A DNA stretch of 33,334 bases from an uncultured delta proteobacterium (lineage in GTDB: Bacteria; Desulfobacterota; Desulfobacteria; Desulfobacterales; JAFDCJ01), in contig CAVYNY010000029.1 in NCBI GenBank assembly GCA_963769935.1, positions 1 through 33,334 of the forward strand, written 5' to 3'. Below, piece by piece: positions 4,628-31,181 of this stretch. The notes beneath the pieces are model-generated. The model searched no databases. It was given only the letters and a program-made list of their open reading frames with translations, and was not told where the DNA came from. Each line of letters begins with the position of its first letter. Within the stretch, counting starts at the first letter, position 1. Position numbers and translations under genes: made by a program.

Positions 4628-7600
4628 ATGAAACTGATCAAAAGTATTCCCACGCTGACCTTTCTGTGTGCCGTGGCGGTGCTGGCCATCATGACCATAG
4701 CCATGTTCGTTGCGTGGGTGCCTTATTATTTTGATTCCTACCGGCAGCAGACAGAGCGTCTGGAGCCGAACTGCGCACCCGCCAGCGGCAGCTGCTCAAA
4801 GATCAGGTGGACAGGGCCGTTGAATACATCGATTACATGCGATCGAAAACCGAAACGCGGCTGCAGGACCAGATCAAGCCAGAGTATATGAAGCCTGTGA
4901 CATCGCGCTGAACATCTACCGCTGAAAATAACGACAAAGTGCCCCGCCAGATGCTCGAAAACATGGTAAAAGACGCCCTGCGTCCGATTCGGTTCAACCA
5001 GGGCCGGGGCTACTACTTTGCCACCCGCCTGGACGGCATTGAAATGCTCTTTGCCGACCGGCCGGAGATGGAGGGCCGGGATATGTCGGCTGTCATGGAC
5101 CTGGAAGGCCGCTACGTTGTGCCCGACATGATCGCAATCGTCAAAACCGCCGGCGAGGGATATTACCGTTACCTGTGGACCAAGCCCGGCCACCCGGACA
5201 AAGGGTTTCCCAAAATCGCCTTCGTCAAGTTGTTTGAACCTTTCAACTGGCTGATCGGCACGGGTGATTACCTGGATGAGGTGGAGGCCGAGATCAAAGC
5301 CGAGGTGGTCGACCGTCTCGAATCCGTCCAGTTCGGCACAGACGGCTATATTTTCGCCGGCGGCTATGACGGAGTATCCGTGATGGGACCGGTCAAGGGC
5401 CGCAGCATGCTCGCGAGTCAGCGATGCCGAGGGTGTCAAAATCGTGCGCGAGCTGATCGCCGCCGCTGAGAAAGGGCGGCGGCTTCGTGCAGTACGTTAT
5501 GCCTGCGCTGGAAGGAATCGCATCCAAACCCAAAATCAGTTTCGTGCGGGGCATTCCCGATTGGCAATGGTACGTAGGGGCCGGCATGTATGCCGAAGAC
5601 CTCCGGGAGCTGATTGAAACCGGACAAGCCGGCCTGCAACGGCAACTGAGACGCAAGATTATTCAACTGCTGCCCATCTTTCTGGGAGCCGGCCTGCTGG
5701 CCCTGGCCGTTTCCTGGCTGGTATATATCCGCATCCGCAAAGAGCGTGACATTTTCGGCCGCTTTTTTCAGCAGGCCGCCGAGAGCTACGAAACCATCGA
5801 TGAGCAGCCGGCTGTATTTTTCCGAATTCCGCTCATTGGCCAAATCGAAGCCAATGCCATGCTGGCTGCCCGTGAAAAAGCCATGCAGGACCTGCAACGG
5901 AGCGAAGAACGCTTTAAGGAACTGGCCGAATCGTTGCCGGAAACCATTTTTGAAATGGACCTTCAGGGCACGCTGACGTTTGTGAATCGCAGGGCTTTTG
6001 AACAGTTCGGATACTCGCAGCAGGATTTTGCACGCGGCCTGAGTTCGCTGGACATGGTCATACCCGCTGACCGTGCCCGGGTTATGGCAAACATTGTAAA
6101 AATCCTGGAGACAAAAACAACCAGCTTTAATGAATATACCGCCCTGCGCAAGGACGGCGGTACCTTTGCCTGTCTGATATTTTCCGCACCGATACCGGAA
6201 CGACGGCCGGTCGGTCGGTTTGCGGGGATTTATCATCGATATCACAGAGCGCAAAAGAGCCGAGGATGAGCTGCAAAGTTCGGCGAACGGTATTACCGTT
6301 CGCTGATCTCCAATTTGCATGAAGACATCCTGGTGGTCGACCGCAACTACACGATCACCGACGTCAACAATTCCTTTCTTATCACCACCGGCCACCGGCG
6401 CGAAGACGTTGTCGGACGGCAGTGCTATGAGATCACCCATGGCCGCGACCGCCCCTGCCGGGAATCCGGCGAGGCCTGCGGACTGGAGGAGGTGTTTGAA
6501 TCCGGCCGGGCCCATAAATTCCATCAAGGAACACCTCAACAAAGACGGCTCCAAGATCGTGGTCGGACATCCTTTATTCCCCGCTGAAGGATGAAAGCGG
6601 CAACGTCACCCATGTCATTCAGGCCGTTCGGGACGTCACCGAGGTGGTGCAGGTCAAAGATGAGCTGCGGAAAAGCGAGGAAAAGTTTCGCATGATCAGC
6701 ACTGCGGCCCGGGATGCCATTATGATTACGGATGAAAACGGTAAAATCACCTACTGGAATCCGGCTGCCGAGCAAATGTTCGGATTTTCGGCGCAAGAGG
6801 CCGTCGAGGCCGATTTGCTCTCGCTGATCCTGCCTGTGCGCGAGCGGGACCATCTTAGACGGAGTATTACCCAATATGATACCGGAGTTACGAGCGTCGA
6901 TGAGCTGATCGAAGTCCTGGCCCTTAAAAAGGACGGCAGCAAGGTGCCGGTGGAGCTGTCGGTTTCAGTCGGCAGTCTTGAAGGCCGCCGGAGCGCCATC
7001 CTGCTCATCCGGGATATCACCAAACCCCGGCAGGCCAGAGAGGCGCTCAGGCAGAGCGAGGAGAGATACCGGTCGCTGTATTCTGCCATGAGCGAGGGCG
7101 TAGCAATCCATGAGATCATTTATGACCAAAGGGGCCAGGCATCGGACTATACTCTCTTGGATGTGAACCCGGCATTTGAATCGATTACCGGTTTGAAAAA
7201 AGAAGCGGTGCAAGGCCAAAACGCATCAAAACTTTACGGTGTGGACCGGGCGCCATACTTAGAAGTCTACGCCGAGGTGGCAGCCACCAGCGTACCGACT
7301 TGCTTTGAAACCTATTTCCCGCCGATGGGAAAACACTTTAACATTTCCGTTTTTTCCCTCGGAGATAGAAGGTTTGCCACCGTATTCGAAGATATTTCCG
7401 GGCGCAAACAGGCTGATGAGGTGCTAAAGGAAAGCGAGGAGCGTTTCAGAGTGCTGTTTGAGCATGCCCCGGATCCTTTTTATATCAGCGACATGGATGG
7501 AACCCTGGTGGACGGCAATCAAGCGGCGGAAAAATTAATTGGCTACCAGAAAAACGAGCTAATTGGGGAAAATATTTTCGAAACCGGGATTATCTCGGAT

Positions 7601-8958
7601 GCCGATCTTCCAAAAGCGCTCAGCCTCTATGAAAAGAGCCGGAACGGCGCGCAGACCGGATCCGATGAATTCATGTTATACCGGAAAGATGGTGAGGCGG
7701 TTTATGCCGAAGTATCGATGCATCCGGTAACCATCAGGGGGGAGAAATTTATGCTGGGCAGTGCCAGGGATATCACCGAACGACGCACAGCCGAACAAGA
7801 AAGAAGAAGCTGGAGGCCCAGCTGCGCCAGGCCCAGAAAATGGAGGCCATCGGTACCTTTGCCGGCGGCATTGCCCATGATTTCAACAACATTTTATCGG
7901 CCATTATAGGCTACGCCGAGCTGGCCATCGATAAGGCTTCCCTGAACACCCCGCTGCATGACGACCTGCAGGAAGTATTTCGTGCCGGCTACGGGCGCGG
8001 GATCTGGTCAAGCAGATATTGACCTTCAGCCGCCAGGCCGAGCAGAAGATGCAGCCGGTGCAGGTGGATTTGATCGTCAAGGAGGCCTTGAAGTTTTTGC
8101 ACGCCTCACTGCCGAGCCAATATCGAGGTCCGCCCCGACATCGCCAGTGATGCCCGGGTGCTGGCCGACCCCACCCAACTGCACCAGGTGCTGATGAACC
8201 TGTGCGCCAATGCCCGGCATGCCATGGGGCAGACCGGCGGAAAGCTGGAAGTCTCCCTGGTCGAGGTGCAACTGGATGCGGATTTTGCGGCGGTCCATCC
8301 GGGGGCCTGAGCCGGTGCATACCTGAAGCTGACGGTGGCCGACAGCGGCGAGGGCATGCCGGCCGAGGTGCGGGAGAAAATTTTCGAGCCGTTTTTTACC
8401 ACCAAGAGCAAAGGGGAGGGGACGGGTCTGGGGCTGGCGGTGGTACACGGCATCGTCAAAAGCAGCAGCGGCTTTATTACGGTTTACAGCGAACCGGGCC
8501 AGGGCACGGCCTTTAATGTGTTTTTGCCGGTGATTGAAGCCCGGGACAAGCCGCCGGCTGAAATCAAAGGCCAGCTGCCGGCCGGCACGGAGCGGGTGCT
8601 GCTGGTGGACGATGAAAAAATATTAATCGACATCGGGGCTCAAATGCTGGAGCGCCACGGATACCGGGTGACCGTCCGCACCAGCTCGGTGGAGGCGCTG
8701 GCGCTCTTTAATGCCAAACCGGACCAATTCGATCTGGTGATCACCGACCTGACCATGCCCAACCTGAGCGGTCTGGAGCTGGCCGCCGAAATCATCGCGC
8801 AGCGGCCGGAGGTGCCCATCATTTTATGCACCGGCTTCAGCGCGAAGATTACCCCGGCCGGTGCTGAATCCGCCGGCATCAAAGCCTTGATAATGAAACC
8901 GATCTCCCGGGACGATCTGATCCGCACCGCCCGCCGGGTGTTGGATGAGCGCAATTGA
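4628..8958 (+). CDS. Membrane hybrid sensor histidine kinase (TM, two sCache_2-like domains, TM, about 5 PAS, HisKA, HATPase, REC), broken by many frameshifts
   Basis: Successive ORF pieces show Cache motifs (GYYF...[12 protein letters not shown]...[24 protein letters not shown]...[21 protein letters not shown]) and PAS repeats. They then show H-box [12 protein letters not shown]-box [12 protein letters not shown]-boxes DSGEGM...FEPFFTTK...GTGLGL and receiver VLLVDDE...[10 protein letters not shown]. Indels may be sequencing errors. Confidence 0.88.
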
Positions 8959-9864: not shown

Positions 9865-11283
9865 ATGGCTGAAGTACTCATCATTGACGACGATCGGACT
9901 CTCTGCCGGATGCTGAGCGATTTGGTTGCCGGCATGAATCACCGGGCCGCCTGCGCAGTCACCCTGGCTGAGGGGCTCACCAGGGCCCATTCCGGTGCCT
10001 TTGAGGTTGTCCTGCTGGATGTGGGTCTGCCTGACGGCAGCGGTCTGGAAGGGTTGACGGAAATACGGCAAATTAACCCCTTTCCAGAGGTAATCATCAT
10101 GACAGGCGACGGGGATCAGGATGGGGCGGAAGTCGCCATCAAAAACGGCGCTTGGGATTACATCCAAAAACCGCTGATCCGCAAGGAGGTAATACTGGCG
10201 CTCAAACGGGTCTTGCAGTATCGCAGCGGTTCCCACAAACCGTCTGAAACCGCCGTATCTTTAAGGCTGGACAATATTATCGGCAGCAGCCCGCAAATGA
10301 AAGCATGCTACGATTCCCTGGCCCGGGCCGCGAACTGCGAGGCCAACGTGCTGATTACCGGTGAGACCGGAACTGGCAAGGAATTGTTTGCCCATGCCAT
10401 TCACGTCAATAGCCTTCGTTCCGGCAGCAATTTCGTGGTGGTGGATTGTGCCGTCCTGCCGGAGACACTTGTGGAAAGCACTCTTTTCGGGCATGAAAAG
10501 GGAGCTTTTACCGGGGCCGATAAACACACCGAGGGACTGATCAAACAGGCCGATGGCGGCACGCTGTTTCTCGATGAAGTCGGAGAGTTGTCTCTGTCCG
10601 TCCAACGGACTTTTCTCAGGGTTCTGCAGGAAAAGCGTTTTCGGCCGGTCGGCGGTAGCAAAGAAACCAACAGCGACTTCAGGCTGGTTGCGGCCACCAA
10701 CCGCAGCTTGGACGAAATGGTGAAAGTCGGACAGTTCCGGCAGGACCTGCTGTTTCGTCTGCGTTCAATCACCATCGAACTGCCGCCTCTCAGAGAGCGC
10801 AGCGGTGATATCAAAGAACTTGCCATCTATTACATGAGCCGGCAATGTGACCGCTATGGTATCCCCTCAAAGGGTTTTGCAACTGAATTTTTTTCAACTC
10901 TGGCATCCTACGGTTGGCCGGGAAACGTGCGTGAACTGGCCCATGCCATCGAAAACATCATTGCCACTGCCGGCGATGATCCGGTTCTTTTTCCCCAGCA
11001 TTTACCGAAATCAATTCGCTCGACAATCGCACGCGCTGCCACTCGCAGCAATTCCGGCGCGAATCGGTTTTCGGACCTGAATGAAGAGTGTCCTTCGATG
11101 GATATCACCTTGAAGGATTTTCGCGAAGGCACCGTCCAGAAGGCGGAAAAAGCATATTTGCAGCGCCTGATGTCGATTGCCGGAAACAACATCCAGAAAT
11201 CGTGCCGCCTGGCCGGTCTATCACGCCCGAGGCTATACGCCCTGCTCAAAAAGCATCAGATCTCCCGCTTCGACATTGCCTGA
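9865..11283 (+). CDS. NtrC-family sigma54-dependent response regulator (REC-AAA+-Fis HTH)
   Basis: VLIIDDD...VLLDVGLPD, Walker A GETGTGKE, GAFTGA loop, LFLDEV, FRQDLLFRL, WPGNVREL and C-terminal AGLSRPRLYALLKK. Confidence 0.96.
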   Translation: MAEVLIIDDDRTLCRMLSDLVAGMNHRAACAVTLAEGLTRAHSGAFEVVLLDVGLPDGSGLEGLTEIRQINPFPEVIIMTGDGDQDGAEVAIKNGAWDYIQKPLIRKEVILALKRVLQYRSGSHKPSETAVSLRLDNIIGSSPQMKACYDSLARAANCEANVLITGETGTGKELFAHAIHVNSLRSGSNFVVVDCAVLPETLVESTLFGHEKGAFTGADKHTEGLIKQADGGTLFLDEVGELSLSVQRTFLRVLQEKRFRPVGGSKETNSDFRLVAATNRSLDEMVKVGQFRQDLLFRLRSITIELPPLRERSGDIKELAIYYMSRQCDRYGIPSKGFATEFFSTLASYGWPGNVRELAHAIENIIATAGDDPVLFPQHLPKSIRSTIARAATRSNSGANRFSDLNEECPSMDITLKDFREGTVQKAEKAYLQRLMSIAGNNIQKSCRLAGLSRPRLYALLKKHQISRFDIA

Positions 11284-11406
11284 TGTTCATCCTGACAGTT
11301 TCTTCCTACCCAAAAAACAACTTCGCGCTTATCTGAACCTCCCCCTTTGGAGCGTCAATCCTCATTCGCTCATTTCCCGGCTGCCCAGTCTTGCGATGCA
11401 ATAATC

Positions 11407-11425
11407 TGTCTTCCCCGACAAGACA
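11407..11425. promoter_or_regulatory. Candidate activator-binding palindrome TGTCTT-N7-AAGACA (copy 1)
   Basis: tgtctt-ccccgac-aagaca lies about 90 bp upstream of a sigma54-like promoter, with an IHF-like site between. A second copy is at 18062-18080. Confidence 0.5.
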
Positions 11426-11513
11426 AAATATCGATTTAACTACCACCGATCGAGTTAGCCGGTCGGTGGATAACACTTTGAAATATATTGCTTATTCGCA
11501 AAAGAACCTCTTA

Positions 11514-11529
11514 TGGCATACCTTTTGTA
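11514..11529 (+). promoter_or_regulatory. Probable sigma54 promoter of the chemosensory operon (non-canonical -12)
   Basis: TGGCATaccttTTGTA (GG-N10-GT; the -12 C is replaced by T). An IHF-like taacactttgaaa lies at 11471-11483. Confidence 0.5.
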
Positions 11530-11600
11530 TATGGTCCGCATAATCAACTCTAAGTTATCACCATCAGGATTCTGTCCCAAGCGGAAGGAACCCCCGGTTA

Positions 11601-12026
11601 TTGAAAGCGCTTTTATATAAGGCCATTAACTGCAAAAAGGCGAACATGCTTAAGTCGGTGCTGATGGAAGTGCTGGGCGAAGACAGGTTGGAGGTCTTTT
11701 TTCATTTTCATGACCTCGAACGATACTTTCGCACGCCCCGCCGGCCGGATGATTTAACCATCGGCGTGTTTGCAGCCGCCGATCGTGAAAACCTCCGGCA
11801 GCTGGCCTCCATTCGGGACATCATCGCCGACATGAGCATTATTCTGGTACTGCCCGACCGAAATCACAAAACGATCGCGGAAGGTCACAAATTGCAGCCA
11901 AGGTTTGTCGCTTATATAGACAGCAATTTTAAGGAAATCGGGGCCGTGGTTCGAAAAATGATGAAAGCCGCCAACCCGACCGCCGCAGTCTCAAACACAA
12001 ACAGGAATTCATACAAGGAGAATTGA
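11601..12026 (+). CDS. Hypothetical protein, possibly a degenerate receiver-like alpha/beta fold
   Basis: 141-aa ORF (TTG start, upstream gaagga) ending 2 nt before MCP1. It has alternating beta/alpha segments (IGVFAA, IILVLPD, GHKLQPRFVAY) but no canonical DD/D/K receiver residues. Confidence 0.65.
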   Translation: MKALLYKAINCKKANMLKSVLMEVLGEDRLEVFFHFHDLERYFRTPRRPDDLTIGVFAAADRENLRQLASIRDIIADMSIILVLPDRNHKTIAEGHKLQPRFVAYIDSNFKEIGAVVRKMMKAANPTAAVSNTNRNSYKEN

Positions 12027-12027
12027 A

Positions 12028-14367
12028 ATGAAAAACATGAAACTGGGAATGAAAATCACTTTGGGTTTCGGCATCCTCATCGTCATCGCTGCAATATTGG
12101 GCTCGCTGGCGGTCTGGAACATGAAAAGCGTGGAAACGAAAAGCACGATGTTGGCAAACGAGTATGTTCCCGAGGTGAGTGTGGCCGATGACCTGCACGG
12201 CGCTTCCAACCGCGTGATGTTCGAGATGAGAGGATACGGCTTTACTGGCGATGAACAATATTACCGGAACGCCCGCACGGAGTTGGAAGTTGTCGACAAG
12301 GCCGTGGCCGATGCGCGCGCCCTGGCCCAGAAATCGCCCCACCTGGTCAATCTGAAGGACCAGATCGAGGTGGCCGCGAAAGCGGTTGACGAATACAAGG
12401 CGCTGGCGCAACAGACAGTGGAAATGAACGCCAAGATTGAAGCAAACCGCAAAAGCCTTGAGGCGGCCGCGGCCAAGTATATGCAGAACTGCGCCGACTT
12501 TCTGAAGAGCCAGGACGAAGCCTTTAAGAAAGATCTGGCCGAGCGCCAAAAAAAAATAGCACTTGTGTCCACGCTGGTTGATATCGGCTCTGCCGTGAGA
12601 GTCTCCAATTTCAAATCCCAGGCACTGGACGACCCCAGTCTGATGGAGCAAGCCATCAGCAAACTGAATGATGCCAAGCCGGTTTTCGCAGCGCTCAGGG
12701 AGATTACCCATGACAAGGAGGACGTCCAGCGCATTGACGACACCGAGTCGGCCGCCGCAAATTATCAGAAAGCCATGCGGGAATTTTTGGCGGAACACAA
12801 AAAGGGGTCCCTGGCCGACCAGAGTCTGCTGAATCAATACCGCAAGGAGATGGATCAGGGCGCCGGGATTTACGTCACAAACTGTGACGAGTTCCTGCAA
12901 GGGCAGCAGAAAAGCTGACCAAGGACATGACCGAACGCCACAGTAAGATCAACACTGGTCAACGATATCATCGACATCGGCAATGCCACCCGGATTGCGA
13001 ACTTCAAGTCCCAGGCCTTGCGGGAACCGCAAGTGATCCAGGATGCCCTTGAGAATTTCGCGAAAATGGACAAGCATGTTCGATGAACTTGCCGGCATTA
13101 CCCGGGCGAAAGTCAATATCGATCAGATCAAAAATACCCGGCAAGCGGCCATGGACTACAAGAACCGATGTCCGATTTGCTGAAGAACTGGCTGGCCCTC
13201 CAGGAGCTGGGGGGAAAACGCGAACATGTGGCCGAATCGGTCATCGAAGCGTGCAAGACCACGGCTGAAGCGGGCATGACCCATACGGATGAGATCGCTC
13301 ATAACGCGGCAGCATCGCTTTCCAGCGCTTCTTTTGTCATGATTGTCGGGTTGATGGTTGCGCTTATCGTGGGCGTTCTGGCGGCCCTTTTCATCACACG
13401 GAGCATCACCAGACCCATCAATCGCATCATCGAGGGTCTCAACGAAGGCGCCGAACAGGTGGCCTCGGCCTCCGGGCAGGTATCCCAGTCCAGCCAGCAG
13501 CTGGCCGAAGGCGCCTCGGAGCAGGCGGCCTCCATCGAGGAGACATCTTCTTCCCTGGAAGAAATGTCGTCGATGACCAAACAAAATGCGGACAATGCCG
13601 ACCAGGCCGACGGTCTGATGAAAGAAGCCAACCAGGTGGTGGACAAGGCCAACCAGTCCATGACCGAGCTGACCGGCTCCATGGAAGAGATATCCAAGGC
13701 CAGCGAAGAGACCTCCAAGATCATCAAGACCATCGACGAGATCGCCTTTCAGACCAACCTGCTGGCGCTGAATGCAGCGGTGGAAGCAGCGCGGGCCGGC
13801 GAGGCCGGGGCCGGATTTGCGGTGGTGGCCGACGAGGTCAGAAATCTGGCCATGCGCGCGGCCGAAGCCGCCAAAAACACCGCGGCGCTGATCGAGGGCA
13901 CGGTGAAGAAAATCCATACCGGCTCCGAGCTGGTCTCCGGCACCAATGAGGCTTTCAGCCAGGTGGCCGAAAGCGCCGCGAAGGTGGGCGAGCTGGTGGC
14001 TGAGATCGCGGCAGCTTCCAAAGAGCAAGCCCAGGGCATCGAGCAGGTCAACACGGCGGTGTCTGAAATGGACAAGGTCACCCAGTCCAATGCCGCCAAT
14101 GCCGAAGAATCGGCATCGGCTTCGGAGGAAATGAGCGCCCAGGCGGAGCAGATGAAGGCGATCGTCGATGAGTTGACGGCACTGGTGGGCGGCAGTCAAA
14201 ACGGCGCGGGCTATGGTGCTGCGCGGCCGATGCCTGCTTTGCATGCCGGGACCCATAAGGAAACGGCGGTGGCGTCCAGGAAGATCAAAAAACTCTCGGC
14301 CCATAAAGTACAGGAAGTATCGCCTGAACAAATTATCCCCCTGGAGGATGATTTTAAGGACTTCTAA
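12028..14367 (+). CDS. mcp: Methyl-accepting chemotaxis protein 1, with frameshifts between about 12910 and 13170
   Basis: [17 protein letters not shown]1, a long helical periplasmic domain, TM2 ([21 protein letters not shown]), signalling core [37 protein letters not shown] and C-terminus EDDFKDF. RBS aaggag. Confidence 0.92.
13442..14367 (+). repeat. Near-identical ~930 bp duplication of the MCP signalling region (copy 1; copy 2 at 16495-17423)
   Basis: Long identical DNA stretches through the stop codon, e.g. gtatcgcctgaacaaattatccccctggaggatgattttaaggacttctaa in both copies. Confidence 0.92.
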
Positions 14368-14450
14368 ACGATTGCCGATCAAACCCGAGGATCGACGATT
14401 TGCGGAGCAATCGGCGATCCTCAATCCAGATTATCTAGAGGTCGAATATT

Positions 14451-17423
14451 ATGGAAAAAATTCTCAAAAGTCTAGTCTGGCTGGCGATCCTATGCTGCTT
14501 TATTCCCTCACAAGGGATTCTGGCGGGGCTTAAACCATCCCCGGATGAGGTCCTTAGGATGCTGCAGGAAGGCAACCGGCGTTTTGCCGAAGGAAAGTCA
14601 ATGCATCCAAATACATCCTCGGCGCGACTCCATCAGGCGGGAACCGAAAATCAGGGGGATTACGCCTATGCCACCGTGATTGCCTGCTCGGATTCACGGG
14701 TGCCTGTTGAGCGGATCTTTGATGCCGGAGTGATGGATATATTTGTCATTCGTGTTGCCGGTAACGTCGCAGATACCGATGAAGCCGGTTCGATCGAGTA
14801 TGGCCTGGCGCATGTCCACACCCCAGTGCTGGTTGTTCTTGGTCATACTCAATGCGGAGCGGTGACAGCGGTTACCCATTCAATCCTTGGAAAAGGGCAT
14901 GCCTTGGAACGGAATATCCCTCCATTGGTAGATAATATCATACCAGCCGTAAAACGGGCCATGGCACAAAACCCAGGCGTGCAAGGCGACGAAATTATTC
15001 CGTATGCCGTCAGTGAGAATGTTTGGCAAACTGTGGAAGATCTCTTTATGCAAAGCCCATCCACTCGAGATCTCGTTAGGAGCGGCAAGGCCAAAGTCGT
15101 TGGCGCCATCTATGATGTGGGCACAGGCAAGGTAAATTGGCTGCCTGAATCCAAAGTTGCTCAAATTCTCAAAAATGTTGAGGCAAATCCCCAAAGAGCG
15201 ATGAATGCCATGGCCGGTTCCGGTCACGCCGAAACCGTTTCCTTTGGGACAGGACATGAGACAGCGCAAGCTAAAAGTGTAACACATTCCGAGGTCAAGG
15301 CCGTGCCGGTAACCCTGGCAGACACTGAAACCATGAATATTCTCCAGACCGATTGGCTGAAGGAAGAAAGCGCACAAAAGCTTTCAACCGCCCATGCCAA
15401 ATTGTCAGGCTATTTCTATGCTTTTATAGTCATTTTAGGTGTCCTGGTGATCGGCGGGTTTATGCTTTTAGCCGGCGGCACTTTCAAGCGTTTCGGACTC
15501 AATCTCAAGCTGTATACCAGCTATGGGGGCCTTGTGCTTTTGGCCGCCATGCTGGGCGCGGGAGGATACATTTACCTGAACAACGTCAAGGGGGAAGATC
15601 ACCTGAAGGCGGCATTCCTGGAACTAGACGTCATGGCCCGTGAAATGCAATCGTTACAGGTGGAGTTTCTTTTACATGGGGTGGAAAACCAGGAATATGG
15701 TGAAACACGGGTCGCTAAAATCAAAGACCTCGTCAGCGAATATGCGCAGGGTTTGAAAGCCATTCGGTCGAGCGACTACCTCGTCGCCGAGCAAGCCGGC
15801 CAGCTCGGCGAACTTGAGACGGTCGTCGCTGCCTATGCCGGCGCACTGGAAGAAATGGTAAAAGCATACCGCGAGCTTGGCGAATCCAATGGAAGACTCG
15901 CTGAGCTGGGTGATGAGGCGGAACGGGTCCTGGCAGAGATGGCGACCCACTATGAGGCGGAATTCGCCAATCATGCAGCCGAGGGCAGTGACCCCCAAGG
16001 TCAACCCAATCAAGCCGAAATTATGGACCACCTTGCCAAGGCGAAAATTCAGATTTTAAGGGTATCGCAAGATGAAGTTGTATTTCGTCTGAACAAAGAC
16101 GCAGATCGTGTGGCGAACATGTCAAAGAATTTGGGTCTTCTTAAAGGATATCTGAAGGCAGTCGAAGAAAAGCTTCAGGAGGCCCGAGAAAAGGCAATGC
16201 TTCAAAAGGTTGAAGAAGAGCTGGCAGGTTACACCGCTATGTTAAGTAAGGTGGTCCGGGATGGTGCCGTTATCGAGAAGGACACCTCTGAAATGGTCGG
16301 GCTTTTGCATCAGTTGGAGGCCATCTGCACCGGTTTGGCCCAAGAGGCGGAGATCTCGGCGGATGGCATGGCACGGGAAGCCGACATTGCTTTAGTTCTT
16401 CTTATCGTTATATCTCTGGTAATTGGAACACTTGTTTCAATTTTTGTTGCGAGAGGCATCTCGAGGCCGGTCTACAGGGTTATCCGGAGCCTGGACGAAG
16501 GTGCCGAGCAGGTGGCCTCGGCCTCCGGTCAGGTATCCCCGTCCAGCCAGCAGCTGGCCGAAGGCACTTCGGAGCAGGCGGCCTCCATCGAGGAGACATC
16601 CTCTTCTCTGGAAGAAATGTCGTCGATGACCAAACAAAACGCGGACAACGCCAACCAGGCCGACGGTCTGATGAAGGAAGCCAACCAGGTGGTGGACAAG
16701 GCCAACGAGTCCATGACCGAGCTGACCGGCTCCATGGAAGAGATATCCAAGGCCAGCGAGGAGACCTCCAAAATCATCAAGACCATCGACGAAATCGCCT
16801 TTCAGACCAACCTGCTGGCGCTGAACGCAGCGGTGGAAGCGGCCCGGGCCGGCGAAGCCGGGGCGGGATTTGCGGTGGTGGCCGATGAGGTCAGAAATCT
16901 GGCCATGCGCGCGGCCGAAGCCGCCAAAAACACCGCGGCGCTGATCGAGGGCACGGTGAAAAAGATCGATGACGGTATCGACGTTGGTCACGCAGCACCA
17001 ATGAGGCTTTCAGCCAGGTGGCCGAAAGCGCCGCGAAGGTGGGCGAGCTGGTGGCTGAAATCGCGGCGGCCTCCAAAGAGCAAGCCCAGGGCATCGAGCA
17101 GGTCAACACGGCGGTGTCTGAAATGGACAAGGTCACCCAGTCCAATGCCGCCAATGCCGAAGAATCGGCGTCGGCTTCGGAAGAGATGAGCGCCCAGGCG
17201 GAGCAGATGAAGGCGATCGTTGAGGAGTTGAGGGCCCTGGTGGGCGGCAGTCAAAACGGCGCGGGCCATGGTGCTGCGCGGCCGATGTCTGCTTTGCATG
17301 CCGGGACCCATACGGAAACGGCGGTGACGTCCAGGAAGATCAAAAAAACTCTCGGCCCATAAAGTACAGGAAGTATCGCCTGAACAAATTATCCCCCTGG
17401 AGGATGATTTTAAGGACTTCTAA
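14451..17423 (+). CDS. Beta-carbonic anhydrase-chemoreceptor (MCP) fusion, with frameshifts at about 16980-16995 and 17345
   Basis: One open frame runs from a signal-peptide-like N-terminus through beta-CA motifs (LQEGNRRF, C79-S-D81-S-R83, [15 protein letters not shown]132-TQ-C135, [12 protein letters not shown]). It continues through three TM segments to the MCP core [18 protein letters not shown]. The 3' end is reconstructed by alignment to MCP1 (...EDDFKDF*, TAA 17421-17423). Confidence 0.92.
16495..17423 (+). repeat. Near-identical duplication of the MCP signalling region (copy 2)
   Basis: Matches 13442-14367, apart from a divergent patch at about 16960-16995 and one extra A in the run at 17342-17348. 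Confidence 0.92.
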
Positions 17424-17461
17424 ATTTCAATGAAACGCTCAACTGAATGGAGGCTTTTAAA

Positions 17462-17974
17462 ATGACGGAAATAACAGAAAAAATAGACCAGGCAGTCAAA
17501 CTCATGGCCGATAGGGAAGGCAAATACCTGACCTTCACCCTGGCCGAGGAAGAGTACGGCATCGGGATTTTAAAGATCCGCGAGATCATCGGTATGATGC
17601 CCATTACCTCCGTGCCCCAGACGCCGAAATTTGTCAAAGGCGTGATCAACCTGCGGGGCAAGGTGATCCCGGTGGTGGATCTGCGGCTGCGCTTCGGAAT
17701 GGAGGAGATTGATTATACCGAGCGCACCTGTATTATCGTGGTGGAGGTCGAAAGCGGCAGCGGCCAGGTCATCATCGGGATTGTGGTGGATTCGGTCTCT
17801 GAGGTGTTGAACATCAAGGCCGAAGAAATCGAGGACACGCCCACCTTCGGCACCCGGCTGAACACGGATTACATTCTGGGTATGGCCAAGATGGAAGGCC
17901 GGGTGAAGATCCTGCTGGACATTGATCGGGTGCTGAGCGCGGAAGAAATTGACGTTTTAAAAATGGCGGCCTGA
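17462..17974 (+). CDS. cheW: Chemotaxis coupling protein CheW (copy 1)
   Basis: KYLTFTLAEEEYGI...IREII...VPQTPKFVKGVINLRGKVIPVVDLR...GIVVDSVSEV...ILLDIDRVL. RBS ggagg at 17449 favours ATG 17462. Confidence 0.96.
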   Translation: MTEITEKIDQAVKLMADREGKYLTFTLAEEEYGIGILKIREIIGMMPITSVPQTPKFVKGVINLRGKVIPVVDLRLRFGMEEIDYTERTCIIVVEVESGSGQVIIGIVVDSVSEVLNIKAEEIEDTPTFGTRLNTDYILGMAKMEGRVKILLDIDRVLSAEEIDVLKMAA

Positions 17975-18061
17975 GTTGCGCTGGTGATAAGCAATTTAGC
18001 AAGGCGATATCATTGCTGTTTCCCGGGGCGCCAATCAGTCATATTGAGCATTGCAATAGTT

Positions 18062-18080
18062 TGTCTTGCGAGGCAAGACA
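18062..18080. promoter_or_regulatory. Palindrome TGTCTT-N7-AAGACA (copy 2); binding site or RNA hairpin
   Basis: ttgtcttgc-gag-gcaagacaa is a perfect 9-bp inverted repeat in the cheW/cheX-like intergenic region. Confidence 0.45.
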
Positions 18081-18152
18081 AAGTCAGGCGCTCGTCCGTG
18101 CCGTCCAAAGCTAAAGGATGGAGTCAAATAAAGGATACCAAAGGAAAAGAGC

Positions 18153-18635
18153 ATGCAGGAAATCAATACATTGGACTTTAAAGAATTCCTAATGAATGCC
18201 ATAGGAAACGTCTTTGATCTGATGCTTTCCATGGAAGCCGAATTCATCGATGCGGGCTTTCAGCCGACCCCTGGGGATAGTCAAATTGTAGGGACCGTCA
18301 GTTTCGCAGGCAAAGTGATGGGAAACATCAATATTCAAGTCAATGACGCCTTTGCGCGGGTTATGACCTCCGCCATACTGGACATGGAATTGGATGAAAT
18401 CGAAGGCGAAGAAGAGACCTATGATGTCATCGGAGAGGTGAGTAATATGATCGGCGGTGATTTAAAGTCGCGATTGTGTGACGCCGGCTATCTCTGCCAA
18501 CTTTCAATTCCATCCATCACCAGCGGCCATAATTATAAGATTGAATCAAAGAACTGGGAGCTGCATGAATCGGTGGATTTTCGCTGCCGGCCGCACACCG
18601 GACGGGTGGAAGTTTATATTAAACCAGGCTCATAA
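18153..18635 (+). CDS. cheX: CheX-family phosphatase-like protein
   Basis: VFDLMLSM...IVGTVSFAG...G, DVIGEVSNMIGG (E-x-x-N motif) and LSIPSI. Confidence 0.85.
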   Translation: MQEINTLDFKEFLMNAIGNVFDLMLSMEAEFIDAGFQPTPGDSQIVGTVSFAGKVMGNINIQVNDAFARVMTSAILDMELDEIEGEEETYDVIGEVSNMIGGDLKSRLCDAGYLCQLSIPSITSGHNYKIESKNWELHESVDFRCRPHTGRVEVYIKPGS

Positions 18636-18656
18636 CCTAAATGGTGGAGAATCACC

Positions 18657-18731
18657 ATGGCATTAAAAATTCTTACGGTGGATGACAGCAAAAAGATCCG
18701 ATTGATCGTCAATACAAGAGATTGGGCATGA
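18657..18731 (+). pseudogene. 5' stub of a response regulator
   Basis: RBS ggaga, then MALKILTVDDSKKIRLIV-NTRDWA*. Similar to 25535 MSVKILTVDDNKTIRVGV. The stop overlaps the cheA start (ATGA). Confidence 0.75.
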
Positions 18732-21118
18732 ACATAAAAAAAGAAAAAAGTATCCAGGCAATTCGGAAAATTATAAACGATATTGAAACCGTGGAATTTA
18801 GTGATCAAGAGGCGTGGCAGAGCATTCGTTTTGAGCTGGATGCCGTTGTCCAAAATTTTCCCAAGAAGATTTCCGTGCCGTTAAAAACCATCGGCCTGTG
18901 CCTTAAAGGAGTTCAAGCGTTCAGCGCACAAAGGGGAACGTCATCTTTTGCGCTTATAGAAGCCATATCCAATGGCTTGAATGCTTCGGAACATTATCTT
19001 TTGGATAACCCTGATAAGAAACATGTGATTCAAACGGCTGAGCGGCAGCTAAAACAGGCCCTGGCCAAAGCGCAGGAGGGGACGGAAGAAAAACCGGCAT
19101 CCGAGACCGCGCAACCCAACGATCTGTCGACGGTTTGCCCTGAAGATGCCGCCGCGCTTTTAATTCAGCTTGAAGCGAATGATCCGCCCGGACCGGCGGG
19201 TCTGAAAGAAACGCTGCCGGACAGTCCGGTACCTGAAGATTCTTTTGCAGCGCCGGACGGTCAGCCGGAGGCTGATAATTCAGAGCACGATTACATGCCG
19301 CAAGACGGGGACGCGGAGCTTTTAGGCGAGTTTATAACCGAAAGCAGCGAGTTGATTGCCGGCGCCGAGGAGGCTTTGTTAACGCTTGAAACCGACCCTG
19401 ACGATGTGGAGGCCATCGGAATGGTTTTTCGCGCGTTTCACACCGTCAAGGGAACCGCGGCCTTTATGGATCTGACGCTGATATCTGAATTAGGTCATCA
19501 TGCGGAGTCGCTTTTAAGCCGGGTGCGCGACGGTGAAATCAGATACGGCGGCGGGTATGCCGATTTGTCCCTGCGTGCGCTGGATATGATTAAGGACCTG
19601 ATCTCTGCCGTTAAGGATGCCCTGGGCGGCGGGCGACTGACCAAACCCGATGGTTATGATGATTTGATGGGGATTCTAGCCGATCCTGAAGCAGCCGGCA
19701 TATCAAATGAGTTGGATGAAGTGTCCGCCCCGCGCCTGGGTGATGTGTTGGTCGCGCAGGGCAAGGTTGAACGAAAGCAAGTTGAGCAAACTGCGCAACG
19801 CCATCCGGATGAGAAAATCGGCGCAGCCATGGTCAAAGATAAGGCCGCCTCGGTTACCGATGTCGGCCGGGCCCTTCGCACCCAGAAGCGCCTGCAGGGC
19901 AGCAACCAGATGGTGGAGTCATCGGTGCGGATGAGCACGCAGCGGCTGGATCGTTTAATTGATATGGTCGGAGAATTGGTGATCGCCCATTCCATGGTGG
20001 CTCAGGACGAAGTAGTAGTCAACGGCGAGCACCATGGACTGCTAAAAAAGATTTCCCACACCAGCAAGATCGTCCGCGAATTGCAGGGCCTCAGCATGTC
20101 GATGCGGATGGTGCCGCTCAAAGCGAGCTTTAATAAAATGGCCCGGTTGGTCCGGGATTTGTCGCGCAAGGTGGGTAAACAGATAACTTTTGAGACCGAG
20201 GGCGAAGACACCGAGATCGACCGCAACCTGGTGGATGTCATCAACGATCCCCTGGTGCACATGGTTCGCAATGCCGTGGACCATGGCATTGAGCTGCCTG
20301 AAATAAGAGTAAAAAACGGTAAGCCCGAATACGGCACGGTCAAGCTATCCGCCTACCACTCGGCCGGCAATGTGGTTGTGGAGATAAATGACGACGGCAA
20401 GGGCCTGGATCGCGAGGCGATTCTTGCCAAGGCCAAGCAACGGGGACTGATCGATGAGGGGTCTTCGCCCAGCGATCGGGAAGTATTTAACCTGGTCTTT
20501 GAACCGGGCTTTTCCACGGCCCAGACGGTGACGGATGTCTCGGGGCGCGGGGTGGGGATGGATGTGGTGAGAAAAAACATTGAATCGCTGCGCGGTCAGA
20601 CTGAAATTAAATCCGAACCGGGAAAAGGCAGCGTGTTTAAAATGAGTCTGCCGCTGACCCTGGCCATTATCGATGGCATGGTGGTGAGGGTGGGGTCTGA
20701 AGCCTACATCATTCCAACAGTATCAATTATCCGATCCATCAAGCCGGAGCCGGGTGATATTTCCACCGTACACCATCAAGTTGAGATGTTGTCGCTGCGG
20801 GGAGAACTCATTCCCTTGTTTCGGCTGGCTGATCTTTACCACATTGACGATGCAAAGCAGAGTCAAAACCAGGAGATTGTGGTTGTGGTTGAAGACGAAG
20901 AGCGTCAAGCGGGATTAATCATTGATGACTTGATCGGCAGACAACAGGTGGTGATCAAGACATTGGGTGAGACCATGAATGCTATCCCCGGAATAGCGGG
21001 CGGCGCCATCATGCCCAGTGGCCGGGTAGGGCTAATCGTTGATGTCGGCAGTCTGGTCAGGTTTGCAAACACAGGACATGGCGAAGGGGCAACGGAAGAA
21101 CATGAAATACGTTGCTGA
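18728..21118 (+). CDS. cheA: Chemotaxis histidine kinase CheA
   Basis: Hpt FRAFHTVKG, dimerisation RLDRLIDMVGELVI, HMVRNAVDHGIE, DDGKGLD, FEPGFSTA...SGRGVGMDVV, LPLTLAI and a C-terminal CheW-like domain. It has an extra N-terminal helical region. Confidence 0.97.
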   Translation: MNIKKEKSIQAIRKIINDIETVEFSDQEAWQSIRFELDAVVQNFPKKISVPLKTIGLCLKGVQAFSAQRGTSSFALIEAISNGLNASEHYLLDNPDKKHVIQTAERQLKQALAKAQEGTEEKPASETAQPNDLSTVCPEDAAALLIQLEANDPPGPAGLKETLPDSPVPEDSFAAPDGQPEADNSEHDYMPQDGDAELLGEFITESSELIAGAEEALLTLETDPDDVEAIGMVFRAFHTVKGTAAFMDLTLISELGHHAESLLSRVRDGEIRYGGGYADLSLRALDMIKDLISAVKDALGGGRLTKPDGYDDLMGILADPEAAGISNELDEVSAPRLGDVLVAQGKVERKQVEQTAQRHPDEKIGAAMVKDKAASVTDVGRALRTQKRLQGSNQMVESSVRMSTQRLDRLIDMVGELVIAHSMVAQDEVVVNGEHHGLLKKISHTSKIVRELQGLSMSMRMVPLKASFNKMARLVRDLSRKVGKQITFETEGEDTEIDRNLVDVINDPLVHMVRNAVDHGIELPEIRVKNGKPEYGTVKLSAYHSAGNVVVEINDDGKGLDREAILAKAKQRGLIDEGSSPSDREVFNLVFEPGFSTAQTVTDVSGRGVGMDVVRKNIESLRGQTEIKSEPGKGSVFKMSLPLTLAIIDGMVVRVGSEAYIIPTVSIIRSIKPEPGDISTVHHQVEMLSLRGELIPLFRLADLYHIDDAKQSQNQEIVVVVEDEERQAGLIIDDLIGRQQVVIKTLGETMNAIPGIAGGAIMPSGRVGLIVDVGSLVRFANTGHGEGATEEHEIRC

Positions 21119-21575
21119 GGTGGGAGACATGAAGGTCGGCCGTGGGGCGGATTTGCTGGTAACCCACGCGCTGGGCAGCTGTCTGGGGCTGATGGTCTAT
21201 GACCCCGTAGCGAAGGTCGGCGGACTGTTGCATGCCATGTTGCCGCTTTCCAAAATCAATCAGCAGAAGGCGGCTGCGAATCCCTTTATGTTTGTGGATA
21301 CAGGGGTGCCGGCGTTGTTTAAAACCTTATATGGGCTTGGGGGGCAGAAAAGACAGATGATTGTCAAAGCCGCCGGCTGCGGCAACCCCATCGGGAAAGA
21401 GGAAATGTTTAAAATCGGTGAGCGCAACTATACGATGCTTAAAAAGCTGTTGTGGAAAAATGACGTCCTGCTGGCAGCCGATGATGTCGGTGGAACTAAA
21501 AGCCGTACAGTTCATTTTGACCTTGCAACGGGTCAGATACTTATCAGCAGCAATGGTAAAAAGTGGCAGCTATGA
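21102..21575 (+). CDS. cheD: Chemoreceptor glutamine deamidase CheD
   Basis: THALGSCLG, GGLLHAMLP, KIGERN and DVGG..SRTV. ATG 21102 overlaps the end of cheA. Confidence 0.93.
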   Translation: MKYVAEVGDMKVGRGADLLVTHALGSCLGLMVYDPVAKVGGLLHAMLPLSKINQQKAAANPFMFVDTGVPALFKTLYGLGGQKRQMIVKAAGCGNPIGKEEMFKIGERNYTMLKKLLWKNDVLLAADDVGGTKSRTVHFDLATGQILISSNGKKWQL

Positions 21576-22423
21576 AGCAAACCAAAATACAGCAAATCAT
21601 GGCGACGGTGAAATCTTTTCCCGGCATGCCGTGGACGGCAGCCAAATTGCTTTCACTGCTCGACAAGCCGGATACGACTGTTTCTCAAATTGAAGAAATC
21701 TTACGATACGACCCGGGACTTACCGCCAATGTGTTGAAGCTGACAAACTCCGCCTATTTCGGATTGCCGGCCAGGATCGGTTCCGTGAGGCAGGCCGTTA
21801 TTATGCTGGGCGAAAAAAGAATGGTGCAGTTGGTGCTGGCATCGTGCGTGCGGGCGGCGATGGACAAAGAAGTTGAGGGCTATGATCTGCCGGCCGGCGA
21901 GCTTTGGCGACACTCTATTGCCGTGTCGGTGGCGGCCGAAACTCTGGTCAGGGAACTAGGAATTGCGGCGGTTGACGTCGTGTTTACAGCCGCCCTGCTG
22001 CATGATGTGGGCAAGTTGGCTTTGGGTTGTTTTGTAAAGGATGACCTTGAAAAAATTGAGGACACCGCATCTGAAGAAATTCCTTTTGAAGTTGCGGAAC
22101 AATTTGTTCTGGGAACCAATCACGCTGAACTCGGCGCCATAATTCTGAACAGTTGGTCATTTCCGGCAGATATTGTCAGCGCAGTTCAATGGCACCACGC
22201 CCCGGACGCCGGCGGGCAGACTAGCACCTTAATCGATATTGTCCATGTGGCCGATGTCTTGAGTGTGATGATCGGAATCGGCGGGGGCCGTGAAGGCCTG
22301 CGGCACCAGCCATCGGGCTCTGCTACCAAAAGATTGGGGCTTAAGCCGTTTGTGCTGGAAAAGGTTGCCAGCCAAACATTGCAATGGGTGAGCGAACTAT
22401 CTGATGTTTTCGGATCAAATTAA
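21572..22423 (+). CDS. HDOD domain protein
   Basis: DPGLTANVLKLTNSAYFG...SVRQAVIMLG, LWRHS, ALLHDVGKL, HAELG...W.FP...AVQWHH. ATGA overlap with cheD. Confidence 0.93.
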   Translation: MKQTKIQQIMATVKSFPGMPWTAAKLLSLLDKPDTTVSQIEEILRYDPGLTANVLKLTNSAYFGLPARIGSVRQAVIMLGEKRMVQLVLASCVRAAMDKEVEGYDLPAGELWRHSIAVSVAAETLVRELGIAAVDVVFTAALLHDVGKLALGCFVKDDLEKIEDTASEEIPFEVAEQFVLGTNHAELGAIILNSWSFPADIVSAVQWHHAPDAGGQTSTLIDIVHVADVLSVMIGIGGGREGLRHQPSGSATKRLGLKPFVLEKVASQTLQWVSELSDVFGSN

Positions 22424-22443
22424 GATCCAAAGGGGTTGGAAAA

Positions 22444-22825
22444 ATGGCGCTGAATGTTTTGATCGTGGATGACAGTGGGATCATGCGGGCGATGATCTTA
22501 AAAACCATGCGCATGAGCGGTCTTCCGCTCGGAGAGATCTACCAGGCGGCGGACGGTCGACAAGGGCTTAAAGCACTTAACGAGCATTGGATAGATTTGG
22601 TGCTGCTGGATATCAATATGCCGGTCATGAATGGCGAACAGATGATAGAGTGTATGCGCAAGGATCCTGATTTGAGAGACACGCCGGTTGTCGTTGTTTC
22701 AACTGAAGGCAGCGAGACGCGCATAGAACGTCTTCAAAGCAAAGGGGTGCGGTTTATCCACAAACCGTTTTCCCCGGAAATCATTCGGGACACTGTTCAA
22801 GATATCTTAGGCGTGGGCGCCGGTG

Positions 22826-22833
<8 letters not shown>
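22444..22833 (+). CDS. cheY: CheY-like single-domain response regulator
   Basis: VLIVDDS...DLVLLDINMPVMNG...VVVVSTEG...FIHKPF, inside the che operon. Confidence 0.88.
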
Positions 22834-25252
<2,419 letters not shown>

Positions 25253-30318: not shown

Positions 30319-30360
30319 AATGATGCACATAATTCCAAATCAGAGTCCCCGGCAAACGAA

Positions 30361-30723
30361 ATGAACACCGGTGCTTCAGAAGGCGTCTTTTCGGATTCCG
30401 ACCTTTTCAATCGGCAGATATTGATCGACCGACTGATGGGAGACGAAGAGTTGGCTGACAGCGTCATCAGCGGGTTTTTAGACGATATTCCCAAACAAAT
30501 CGCTGCCCTTAAAAAATTCGTCGAGCATGGGCATGCAAAGCGGGCCGGCGCGCAGGGGCACAGAATAAAAGGGGCTGCCGGGAACATTGGAAGCCAGGCT
30601 CTCCAAGAGGTCGCTTACGCCCTGGAAAATGCCGGGAGAGCAAAAGATTCTGCACAGCTTAACGATTTGATGCTGCAGTTGGAAAGTCGGTTTAAGGAAC
30701 TGAAAACGTTCATGGAGGCATGA
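30361..30723 (+). CDS. Hpt (histidine phosphotransfer) domain, in frame with the upstream kinase
   Basis: DRLMGDEEL...FLDD...[16 protein letters not shown]...LE. Separated from the kinase only by TAG 30316-30318 and a stop-free 14-codon linker. Confidence 0.9.
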
Positions 30724-31181
30724 CATTAATGCAGGTTCTTGTACTGACCGCCAGAGGTGAAAGCCGGGATATTGTCCATGGGCTCGAAGCAGGCGCAGAC
30801 GAATATGTCGCCAAACCTTTCGATAATGAGGAGTTGCGAGCTCGCGTCAATGCAGGGCGCAGGATGATAGATTTGCAAAACAAGCTTCGGCAGCGGGAGA
30901 AACTCGAAGGCATACTGGAAATGGCCGGTGCGGTGTGCCATGAAATCAATCAGCCGCTGCAGGCGGTCAGCGGTTGGTCGGAATTGTTGCTTTTTGATTT
31001 GGAGGAAAGCAACCCGCACTATGAAACCTTGAAGAAAATCAAGGAAGGTGTGGATCGTATCGGGGAACTGACACGGAAGGTCATGAAAATATCCAAATAC
31101 CGATCAAAAGGCTATATGGGCGGTAGAGGAATGATTATCGACATTGATCAGGCATCAGAACCGAAAAATCAATTTCACTGA
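30720..31181 (+). pseudogene. REC-HisKA protein missing the N-terminal half of the receiver
   Basis: [34 protein letters not shown] is only the beta4-beta5 half of a REC (no DD, no phospho-Asp). H-box [12 protein letters not shown] follows; there is no HATPase. Confidence 0.75.

Follow-up and report, generated by a model that had tools for sequence, protein, structure and literature searches.

Analysis of a 33,334-nucleotide stretch of DNA from an uncultured delta proteobacterium of the Desulfobacterales (JAFDCJ01; GenBank assembly GCA_963769935.1, contig CAVYNY010000029.1; the whole stretch is hereafter called the window) showed a gene that joins a beta-class carbonic anhydrase (CA) to the N-terminus of a methyl-accepting chemotaxis protein (MCP). 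This open reading frame (ORF), at 14451–17189 (+), encodes 912 amino acids (aa) as assembled, in a single frame. The receptor design is real, already catalogued and uncharacterised; new here are a predicted dock for the linker, an alpha-CA in the same slot, the half of the family that has no CA and the apparently eroded sensor of this copy. Sequence conservation and structural models together suggest a receptor for pH or bicarbonate whose tethered CA would make it respond to CO2, a reading that we put at an even chance.

One gene for a carbonic anhydrase and a chemoreceptor

Contigs from independent short-read runs were aligned to the window, as listed pieces each shorter than the whole gene. 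No differences and no gaps were found at 14339–14938, 15109–15313, 15200–15708, 15508–15742 and 15740–16279, and these identical pieces take in the end of the CA, the linker, the transmembrane (TM) segments TM0 and TM1 and the sensor, with 14939–15108 outside the listed pieces. The CA–MCP join is a genuine single gene. A first-pass annotation, made from the letters alone, had described one uninterrupted frame across both parts, and this was borne out, Pro_CA and MCPsignal being matched in a single protein; the read continuity over 15100–15500 that it had proposed to check was provided, from 15109 on, by the contigs at 15109–15313 and 15200–15708. A misjoin or a chance read-through was also considered as the source of the fusion and was ruled out by the contig tiling and by 125 further CA–MCP fusions.

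Two frame disturbances lie downstream of the fusion, where they had been placed from the outset: a +2 at 16977/16994 and a run of seven A at 17342–17348. The +2 was missing in all four crossing contigs (from three runs, X2, X3 and X8), in which the signalling hairpin, interrupted in the assembly, stays in frame; these contigs differ from the window at 10–22 places and could be paralogue-derived. Five paralogues are in frame at the same position. Because the same runs also lack the indels of the upstream MCP, the assembly has indel errors in this region, and the +2 is probably an assembly error. Two contigs with an anchor in unique sequence contain the 7-A run, with no differences and no gaps, and the paralogue has a 6-A run; this slip is probably real and costs the protein only its pentapeptide-bearing tail. 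The read-through product, without the +2, has 969 aa and ends at 17362, and since the 7-A run ends the protein there, the stop at 17423 is vestigial. Contigs of the RNA run X8 cover parts of the gene, with DNA carry-over as a possible source. The features of the gene are the following.

14438–14442 (+): Shine-Dalgarno-like GAGGT, 8 nt 5' of the ATG (sequence)
14451–14525 (+): predicted signal peptide or signal anchor, aa 1–25; two Lys, then a hydrophobic core
14532–15215 (+): beta-CA, aa 28–232, plus C-terminal helices to aa 255, with C79/H132/C135, D81/R83 and Q68 (Pfam, structure match, conservation)
15216–15290 (+): His/Gly/Ser/Ala linker, aa 256–280, predicted disordered (pLDDT below 50 at aa 254–279)
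15291–15359 (+): docking motif, aa 281–303, with the membrane-distal module (aa 527–613) of the helical bimodular (HBM) sensor as predicted partner (complex prediction)
15414–15470 (+): extra transmembrane helix TM0, aa 322–340 (hydropathy 2.7; present in 18 of 18 CA-less relatives)
15519–15578 (+): TM1, aa 357–376, behind a basic loop (hydropathy, loop charge)
15579–16385 (+): predicted periplasmic HBM-fold sensor, aa 377–645 (269 aa, helical; model pLDDT 94, McpS match)
16392–16448 (+): TM2, aa 648–666 (hydropathy 3.1)
16452–17362 (+): MCP signalling domain without HAMP, Tsr-length (Pfam; 94% DNA identity to the upstream MCP)
16977–16994 (+): two surplus bases, +2 frameshift, absent from crossing contigs; probably an assembly error
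17342–17423 (+): 7-A run, premature end of the protein and untranslated pentapeptide tail (anchored contigs); probably real

The CA matched Pfam Pro_CA at aa 74–228 (E 3.8e-36; 125.2 bits against a curated cut-off of 25.7; model positions 1–156). Both zinc-site motifs, Cys-x-Asp-x-Arg and His-x-x-Cys, are complete, and the zinc ligands C79, H132 and C135 and the D81–R83 dyad were found at the positions first assigned to them. The upstream Gln that had been reported with them is present as Q68, invariant in 56 of 56 aligned fusions, but it sits two residues upstream of the canonical Gln column, which holds D70. Because of this invariance, and because a Gln stands at −11 or −9 in all 147 motif instances, Q68 probably takes the canonical role. 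Judged by its sequence, the fused CA keeps all catalytic residues and looks intact.

The nearest solved structure was Rv3588c of Mycobacterium tuberculosis (PDB 2A5V, 1YM3), both by sequence (98.7 bits, E 4e-27) and by fold (TM-score 0.85), and the two share the fold and the Cys/His/Cys and Asp–Arg active site. The fused CA differs from Rv3588c in its predicted export, in two short insertions characteristic of a subfamily rich in Desulfobacterota and in being joined to a receptor. Comparison of similarity scores (98.7 bits vs. 26.1 for the carbonyl sulfide (COS) hydrolase 3vqj and 24.8 for Rv1284) placed it closest to Rv3588c and not to the clade D hydrolases of COS and carbon disulfide (CS2). 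The same genome encodes a separate beta-CA with a twin-arginine leader (L081:1486–2202 (−), some 13 kb away from a different chemosensory cluster on C16) and a third, truncated CA of 135 aa (L083, on C22).

Hydropathy centred the hydrophobic segments at aa 8–26, 322–340, 358–376 and 648–666, the last three agreeing with the extra TM, TM1 and TM2 of the earlier description. The loop at aa 341–356, correctly called short and basic there, has three Lys/Arg and no acidic residue, and the 15 aa past TM2 hold four Lys/Arg. Because both stretches are basic, the CA and the 269-aa helical sensor are predicted to be periplasmic, as had been proposed. A signal segment together with at least three TM segments was present in 83 of 89 fusions. 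The receptor part had been described as a normal MCP; the order TM1–sensor–TM2–signalling core stood (Pfam MCPsignal at aa 741–844, E 6.2e-37), whereas the pentapeptide tail is lost and no HAMP domain was found in the fusion protein, either by the Pfam scan or through a Tsr alignment of its paralogue. In the read-through product, 277 of 305 signalling-domain residues (91%) are identical to the upstream paralogue. The signalling domain of that paralogue aligned to Tsr gap-free across about 250 aa, starting straight after TM2, which argues that HAMP is absent. This gap-free, Tsr-length domain we take to be of the 36H MCP class, the alignment being that of the paralogue. The pentapeptide stands at the C-terminus in only 35 of the 126 retrieved fusions, and no NCBIfam model scored above its cut-off for the protein.

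Sensor, linker and predicted dock

The sensor (aa 377–645) was modelled as a bimodular six-helix bundle (pLDDT 94). Its best structural match was McpS (Z 20.5, root-mean-square deviation 2.9, 236 aligned residues, 15% identity; Foldseek TM-scores 0.72/0.81), the top match in both structure searches, followed by TorS, McpZ and PilJ. Pfam HBM (PF16591) had no match in this protein and weak matches in some relatives, one of them above the cut-off (P0392, 30.4 vs. 29.8), and an ESM Atlas search returned only generic MCP, 4HB and HBM clusters. Like McpS and McpQ of Pseudomonas putida (HBM, PF16591; PDB 2YFA), the fusion has a bimodular six-helix periplasmic fold, two flanking TMs and an MCP signalling domain; unlike them, at 15% identity, it adds a signal peptide, a CA, a predicted docking linker and a third TM, lacks HAMP, and belongs to a family whose conserved sensor residues are His/Glu-rich. 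Of the 19 polar sensor residues conserved in the family, which are mostly His, Glu and Asp, 14 are located in the distal module or at its junction.

The linker, first described as His/Ser/Ala-rich, does contain His, but only four in 89 aa, below many relatives, and the conserved His positions 265 and 273 are replaced here. Across 87 fusions the His columns 259, 265, 273 and 279 are filled in 82, 76, 75 and 61 sequences, respectively. In a 680-aa model aa 254–279 were disordered and aa 281–300 ordered. When aa 276–315 were folded with the sensor, a complex score of 0.66 was obtained, vs. 0.01 for the best of three controls; for comparison, 116 of 157 solved complexes attained this mark, as did 2 of 215 mismatched pairs. 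The runs shared at least 76% of contacts, with a partner pLDDT of at least 62, and laid residues 281–303 along aa 549–570 and 595–613 of the distal module, V287 facing G562, a residue at the predicted interface that is conserved in 53 of 56 sequences. These models, in which the partners are two parts of one chain, predict that the conserved linker motif at aa 281–303 docks on the distal HBM module. By reading of the helix order, the CA-proximal end of the motif would point to the sensor tip; the dock stands 32 helical residues from the membrane in the model, a distance that the 18 residues linking the motif to TM0 can bridge. A linker profile matched 68 of 76 fusions with an HBM-like sensor, the type from which it was built, vs. 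1 of 50 with other sensors, and the docking motif is retained in CA-less and alpha-CA relatives.

Spread, relatives and genomic setting

A first CA search (120 matches listed of 747 significant ones, 501–1596 aa long) yielded 89 CA–MCP proteins, this one included, and an exhaustive search added 37 among 134 more, giving 126 fusions among 254 proteins. The CA is N-terminal of the MCP in all 126, as one copy in 105, two in 19 and three in 2, and both catalytic motifs (CxDxR and HxxC) are kept in 147 of 148 full-length fused CA domains. The nearest named relatives are Desulfobacterota of sulfate-reducer lineages. Carriers include Desulfopila aestuarii DSM 18488 (WP_073611760.1), Desulfogranum mediterraneum (WP_084457029.1) and Desulfobacula, together with Phycisphaerales, Pirellulales, Zixibacteria, Ignavibacteria, Eisenbacteria and Hydrogenedentota; several members bear the JGI automatic name 'methyl-accepting chemotaxis protein/carbonic anhydrase'. 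The CA–MCP family is rare, occurring in at least 3 of 400 genomes of the phylum and at least 6 of 400 of the order (six candidates scored per genome).

Among 80 genome loci of the CA subfamily, 63 were free (about 260–350 aa), 13 fused and 4 cut or split; neither a histidine-kinase nor a GGDEF partner was found among 77 long relatives scanned. The CA tree kept 224 of 239 rows (15 near-identical ones and domains below 230 bits were dropped) and its sampling favoured long proteins. In it the CA of this protein fell in a fused clade (support 0.966), and at least 15 changes between the fused and free states were counted. No direction of fusion is given because deep branches were poorly supported and because of the long-protein sampling. 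Some further arrangements were recorded beside these: two tandem beta-CA domains joined to a phosphate-selective porin O/P-like domain (P0111, P0117, P0122, P0124); a subfamily beta-CA joined to a response-regulator receiver domain (P0216); free tandem CAs whose first domain has lost zinc ligands and whose second is intact (P0016, P0021); and a divergent second CA-like gene about 4–5 kb from the free beta-CA, on the opposite strand (L011, L020, L023, L028, L049, L053, L065).

Searches that started from the sensor returned 35 matches, 16 with a beta-CA, 1 with an alpha-CA and 18 without a CA. The linker motif and the extra TM are present in all 18 CA-less relatives, a signal segment scored in 15, and the conserved residues of the sensor are retained; three of them (P0377, P0385, P0386) carry beta-CA remnants. 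A metagenome motif scan, with 119 of about 310 stretches returned, gave nine members of the family, seven of them at full length; of these seven, five were empty, one had a beta-CA fused to it and one an alpha-CA. Among nine sampled genomes, four held an empty receptor and one a receptor without the tether; a beta fusion was complete in one and truncated by the contig end in another, and of the last two, one kept a beta remnant and the other an alpha remnant. These three sets overlap in part, the same protein standing behind L141 and P0384, G108 and P0389, and G259 and P0386. The CA is an accessory and not the core sensor, about half of the family being without it and four members carrying remnants.

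P0383 and L144 carry an alpha-CA fused to a sensor of this family (mutual identity 52% over the CA), and at L149 the gene 76 bp downstream of a CA-less receptor encodes a separate, exported alpha-CA; the His triad is intact in all three enzymes. In a fourth receptor an N-terminal remnant of an alpha-CA was recognised, with a score reached by 0 of 1000 shuffles. The alpha-CA fusions surfaced only through sensor-first searches: none was seen among the 120 matches listed of 5045 to an alpha-CA profile among longer proteins, which were crowded with tandem-repeat CAs, or in the 16 alpha-CA-bearing genomes of 301. Because two unrelated enzymes for one reaction have filled the slot, selection on the CA reaction itself is suggested.

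In the window, the fusion gene lies between a tandem MCP and a chemotaxis cluster.

12028–14367 (+): tandem MCP upstream of the fusion, split in the assembly by indels without counterpart in short-read contigs
17447–23946 (+): cheW, cheX-like, cheA, cheD, HDOD, receiver and cheB, directly downstream (Pfam)

In the upstream MCP the sensor is helical, with weak matches to CHASE3, 4HB and HBM; its indels lie at 12911, 12954, 13072 and 13165, and it ends in a pentapeptide-type tail. The ORFs scanned in the window included no cheR; matches to flagellin, FliG and CheR were found on other contigs of the genome, and contig C21 carries a closely related cheW/cheD/cheB set with cheR beside flagellar genes. 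At 9865–12026 an NtrC-type regulator and a 141-aa ORF without Pfam or NCBIfam match precede the tandem MCPs, with a sigma-54-like site (two mismatches) at 11514. An ISL3 transposase ORF (23703–25169, −) stands right after cheB and shares about 240 bp with the 3' end of that gene. Several Cache/PAS histidine-kinase genes, one by a Tll0287-like domain, lie in pieces at 4939–8958 and 27670–31181, likely through assembly indels. Promoter and terminator scans scored little differently from shuffled sequence, and the + strand of 11200–18800 showed no terminator. The G+C content at third codon positions was 0.48–0.57 in the sensor half vs. 0.81 in the signalling half, and a close CA match was present in 0 of 22 same-genus genomes (77–97% complete); both would fit an acquired sensor half, short of proof.

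Proposed mechanism and alternatives

In the mechanism proposed here, the exported CA would be held at the tip of the HBM sensor by the linker dock and would turn CO2 into protons and bicarbonate at the distal module, whose local levels would then track CO2. The distal module, rich in His, Glu and Lys, would read the protons or bicarbonate and report to CheA; these conserved residues would suit such ligands better than an Arg-lined carboxylate pocket would. Uncatalysed hydration of CO2 takes tens of seconds, slower than the seconds-long comparisons made in chemotaxis, and for that reason the CA may serve as an accessory kinetic coupler, while receptors that lost it would read pH or bicarbonate directly. 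Coupling of the CA to the sensor is favoured by the unrelated alpha-CA in the same slot, which also supports the initial suggestion that products of CO2 hydration feed the neighbouring domain. The companion suggestion, coupling through a beta-CA dimer on an MCP dimer, was weakened by the alpha-CA, by tandem CAs in 21 of 126 fusions and by the disordered stretch. A broader version, which we hold at somewhat under even probability, describes a socket family: the docking helix and extra TM would hold an interchangeable CA (one to three beta domains, or an alpha) at the distal module, giving sediment bacteria CO2 taxis through protons or bicarbonate released locally, and lineages would switch between sensing CO2 and sensing pH or bicarbonate by gaining or losing the CA.

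Several observations weigh against a CO2-responsive receptor. An intact CA was missing from 18 of the 35 sensor-first matches, from five of the seven full-length metagenome members and from the receptor in seven of the nine sampled genomes; four of these genomes, 93–100% complete, had no alpha- or beta-CA match at all, gamma-CA being outside the search. The CA is joined to other, shorter sensors in 50 of 126 fusions, as well as to porins and to single TM anchors, and so is a promiscuous tethered module. The 680-aa model leaves the position of the CA relative to the sensor unfixed (pTM 0.52). Of the 19 conserved polar residues in the sensor, this copy retains 8; its pentapeptide is lost, and characterised HBM receptors bind organic acids across wide pH ranges, according to the available portion of PMC9600550.

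The CA could instead be a passenger, active in periplasmic pH buffering or inorganic-carbon supply, with the receptor as its membrane or polar anchor and the sensor binding an unrelated ligand, e.g., an organic acid. The CA-less half of the family, the free (63 of 80 loci), TM-anchored or porin-fused forms of the same CA clade and the fused/free state changing at least 15 times on the tree fit this account, as does the binding of malate or succinate by McpS, the nearest fold. We consider it fairly unlikely, since two unrelated CA classes occupy the same slot, a CA-less member has an adjacent alpha-CA gene and the linker has a dedicated motif with a predicted dock on the distal module; simple TM-anchored forms also exist, and because the genome already has a free CA with a twin-arginine leader, bulk periplasmic CA activity needs no tether. 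A different account, compatible with the family mechanism, concerns this copy alone: it would have lost sensing and persist as an anchored CA and array-filling receptor. Its count of conserved polar residues compares with a family median of 17 of 19 in the 55 defining sequences and of 17 (range 10–19) in 26 relatives added afterwards, and ten of the eleven lost residues fall in the distal module or its junction. Conserved positions are kept at 97% in the CA and 61% in the sensor, with one of 55 relatives lower for the sensor, and two linker His and the pentapeptide are gone. In RNA-run contigs of a close relative, four listed differences were all non-synonymous, one restoring the consensus D434, though these are four of 15 in contigs of low depth. 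Nevertheless, the fold is still confidently predicted (pLDDT 94), the docking residues are kept, the signalling domain is probably complete, a terminal pentapeptide is a minority feature of the fusions (35 of 126), and the changes could mean a new specificity, so that complete loss of sensing appears unlikely. The sensor of this copy may be decaying or retuned; with its distal residues largely replaced, the response may be weaker or differently tuned even though the enzyme is kept.

Type II beta-CAs, Rv3588c included, shift between dimer and tetramer states. The CA might accordingly be imagined as the sensor itself, an option also raised at first pass, in which substrate, bicarbonate or pH would shift its oligomeric state and pull the docked tether. 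Rv3588c, with a tetrameric form among those solved, is the closest structure, and the tether is predicted to contact the distal module; however, a disordered linker of about 25 aa separates the CA from the dock, an alpha-CA can substitute, 21 of 126 fusions have tandem CAs, and the CA-less members (18 of 35 sensor relatives) keep the conserved sensor residues, all of which makes this option improbable. Metal sensing, in which the His-rich linker and His/Glu sensor would read Zn, Ni or metal-carbonate and the CA would be incidental or set carbonate levels, agrees with the periodic His columns, kept after CA loss, and with conserved sensor residues that are mostly His, Glu and Asp, but leaves the repeated recruitment of two CA classes unexplained and seems very improbable. 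Hydrolysis of COS or CS2, with the receptor sensing the sulfide formed, had been floated in the first-pass annotation. Such hydrolases share the beta-CA fold, and the nearest named relatives here are sulfate-reducer lineages, but the known hydrolases belong to clade D (PMC12035519, available portion, for fold and clade). The score against 3vqj (26.1 bits, vs. 98.7 for Rv3588c) and the alpha-CA in the same slot weaken this role to the point of being scarcely credible.

The receptor that would sense CO2 through its tethered CA has partial parallels in known systems. In Tar with maltose-binding protein, the helical sensor domain works through a partner protein of the periplasm. TorS–TorT (PDB 3O1H, Z 17.9) likewise has a periplasmic partner at a helical sensor. 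In contrast to both, the partner in the fusion is a covalently tethered enzyme that would supply a product, rather than a ligand-loaded protein. In fungal CA with adenylyl cyclase and in SulP–CA fusions, the CA makes the species that its neighbour reads or moves. The PDB title of 2W3N calls Can2 CO2-sensing, and Helicobacter pylori TlpA answers bicarbonate and acid via a dCache domain (PMC8406319, available portion).

The first-pass annotation knew of no characterised CA–MCP fusion; none described was found, although the architecture was already a line in a supplementary table of 2021. Tables S1 and S2 of Sanchis-Lopez et al. (2021; PMC8547431) list Pro_CA as 'Putative LBD', 4 of 72,480 LBDs, in one cluster, and the main text, in its available portion, contains neither 'anhydr' nor 'Pro_CA' and does not discuss the domain. 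That entry shares the CA on a chemoreceptor and comes without a second sensor, tether, alpha-CA form or mechanism. In the literature searched, with most subscription journals and bioRxiv supplements outside the search, no bacterial chemoreceptor was found that senses via a covalent enzyme, or CO2 via a CA. The available portion of PMC3543383 mentions CA and MCPs separately and no fusion, and that of a 2026 CA survey (PMC13098186) contains no 'chemota', 'fusion' or 'fused'.

If the proposed mechanism is true, it would explain how cells steer by a gas without a good binding pocket. Sulfate reducers and planctomycetes in sediments could use it to locate pH fronts and partners that respire or ferment. 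The family itself provides natural controls, in the form of beta-fused, alpha-fused, CA-deleted and sensor-eroded copies.

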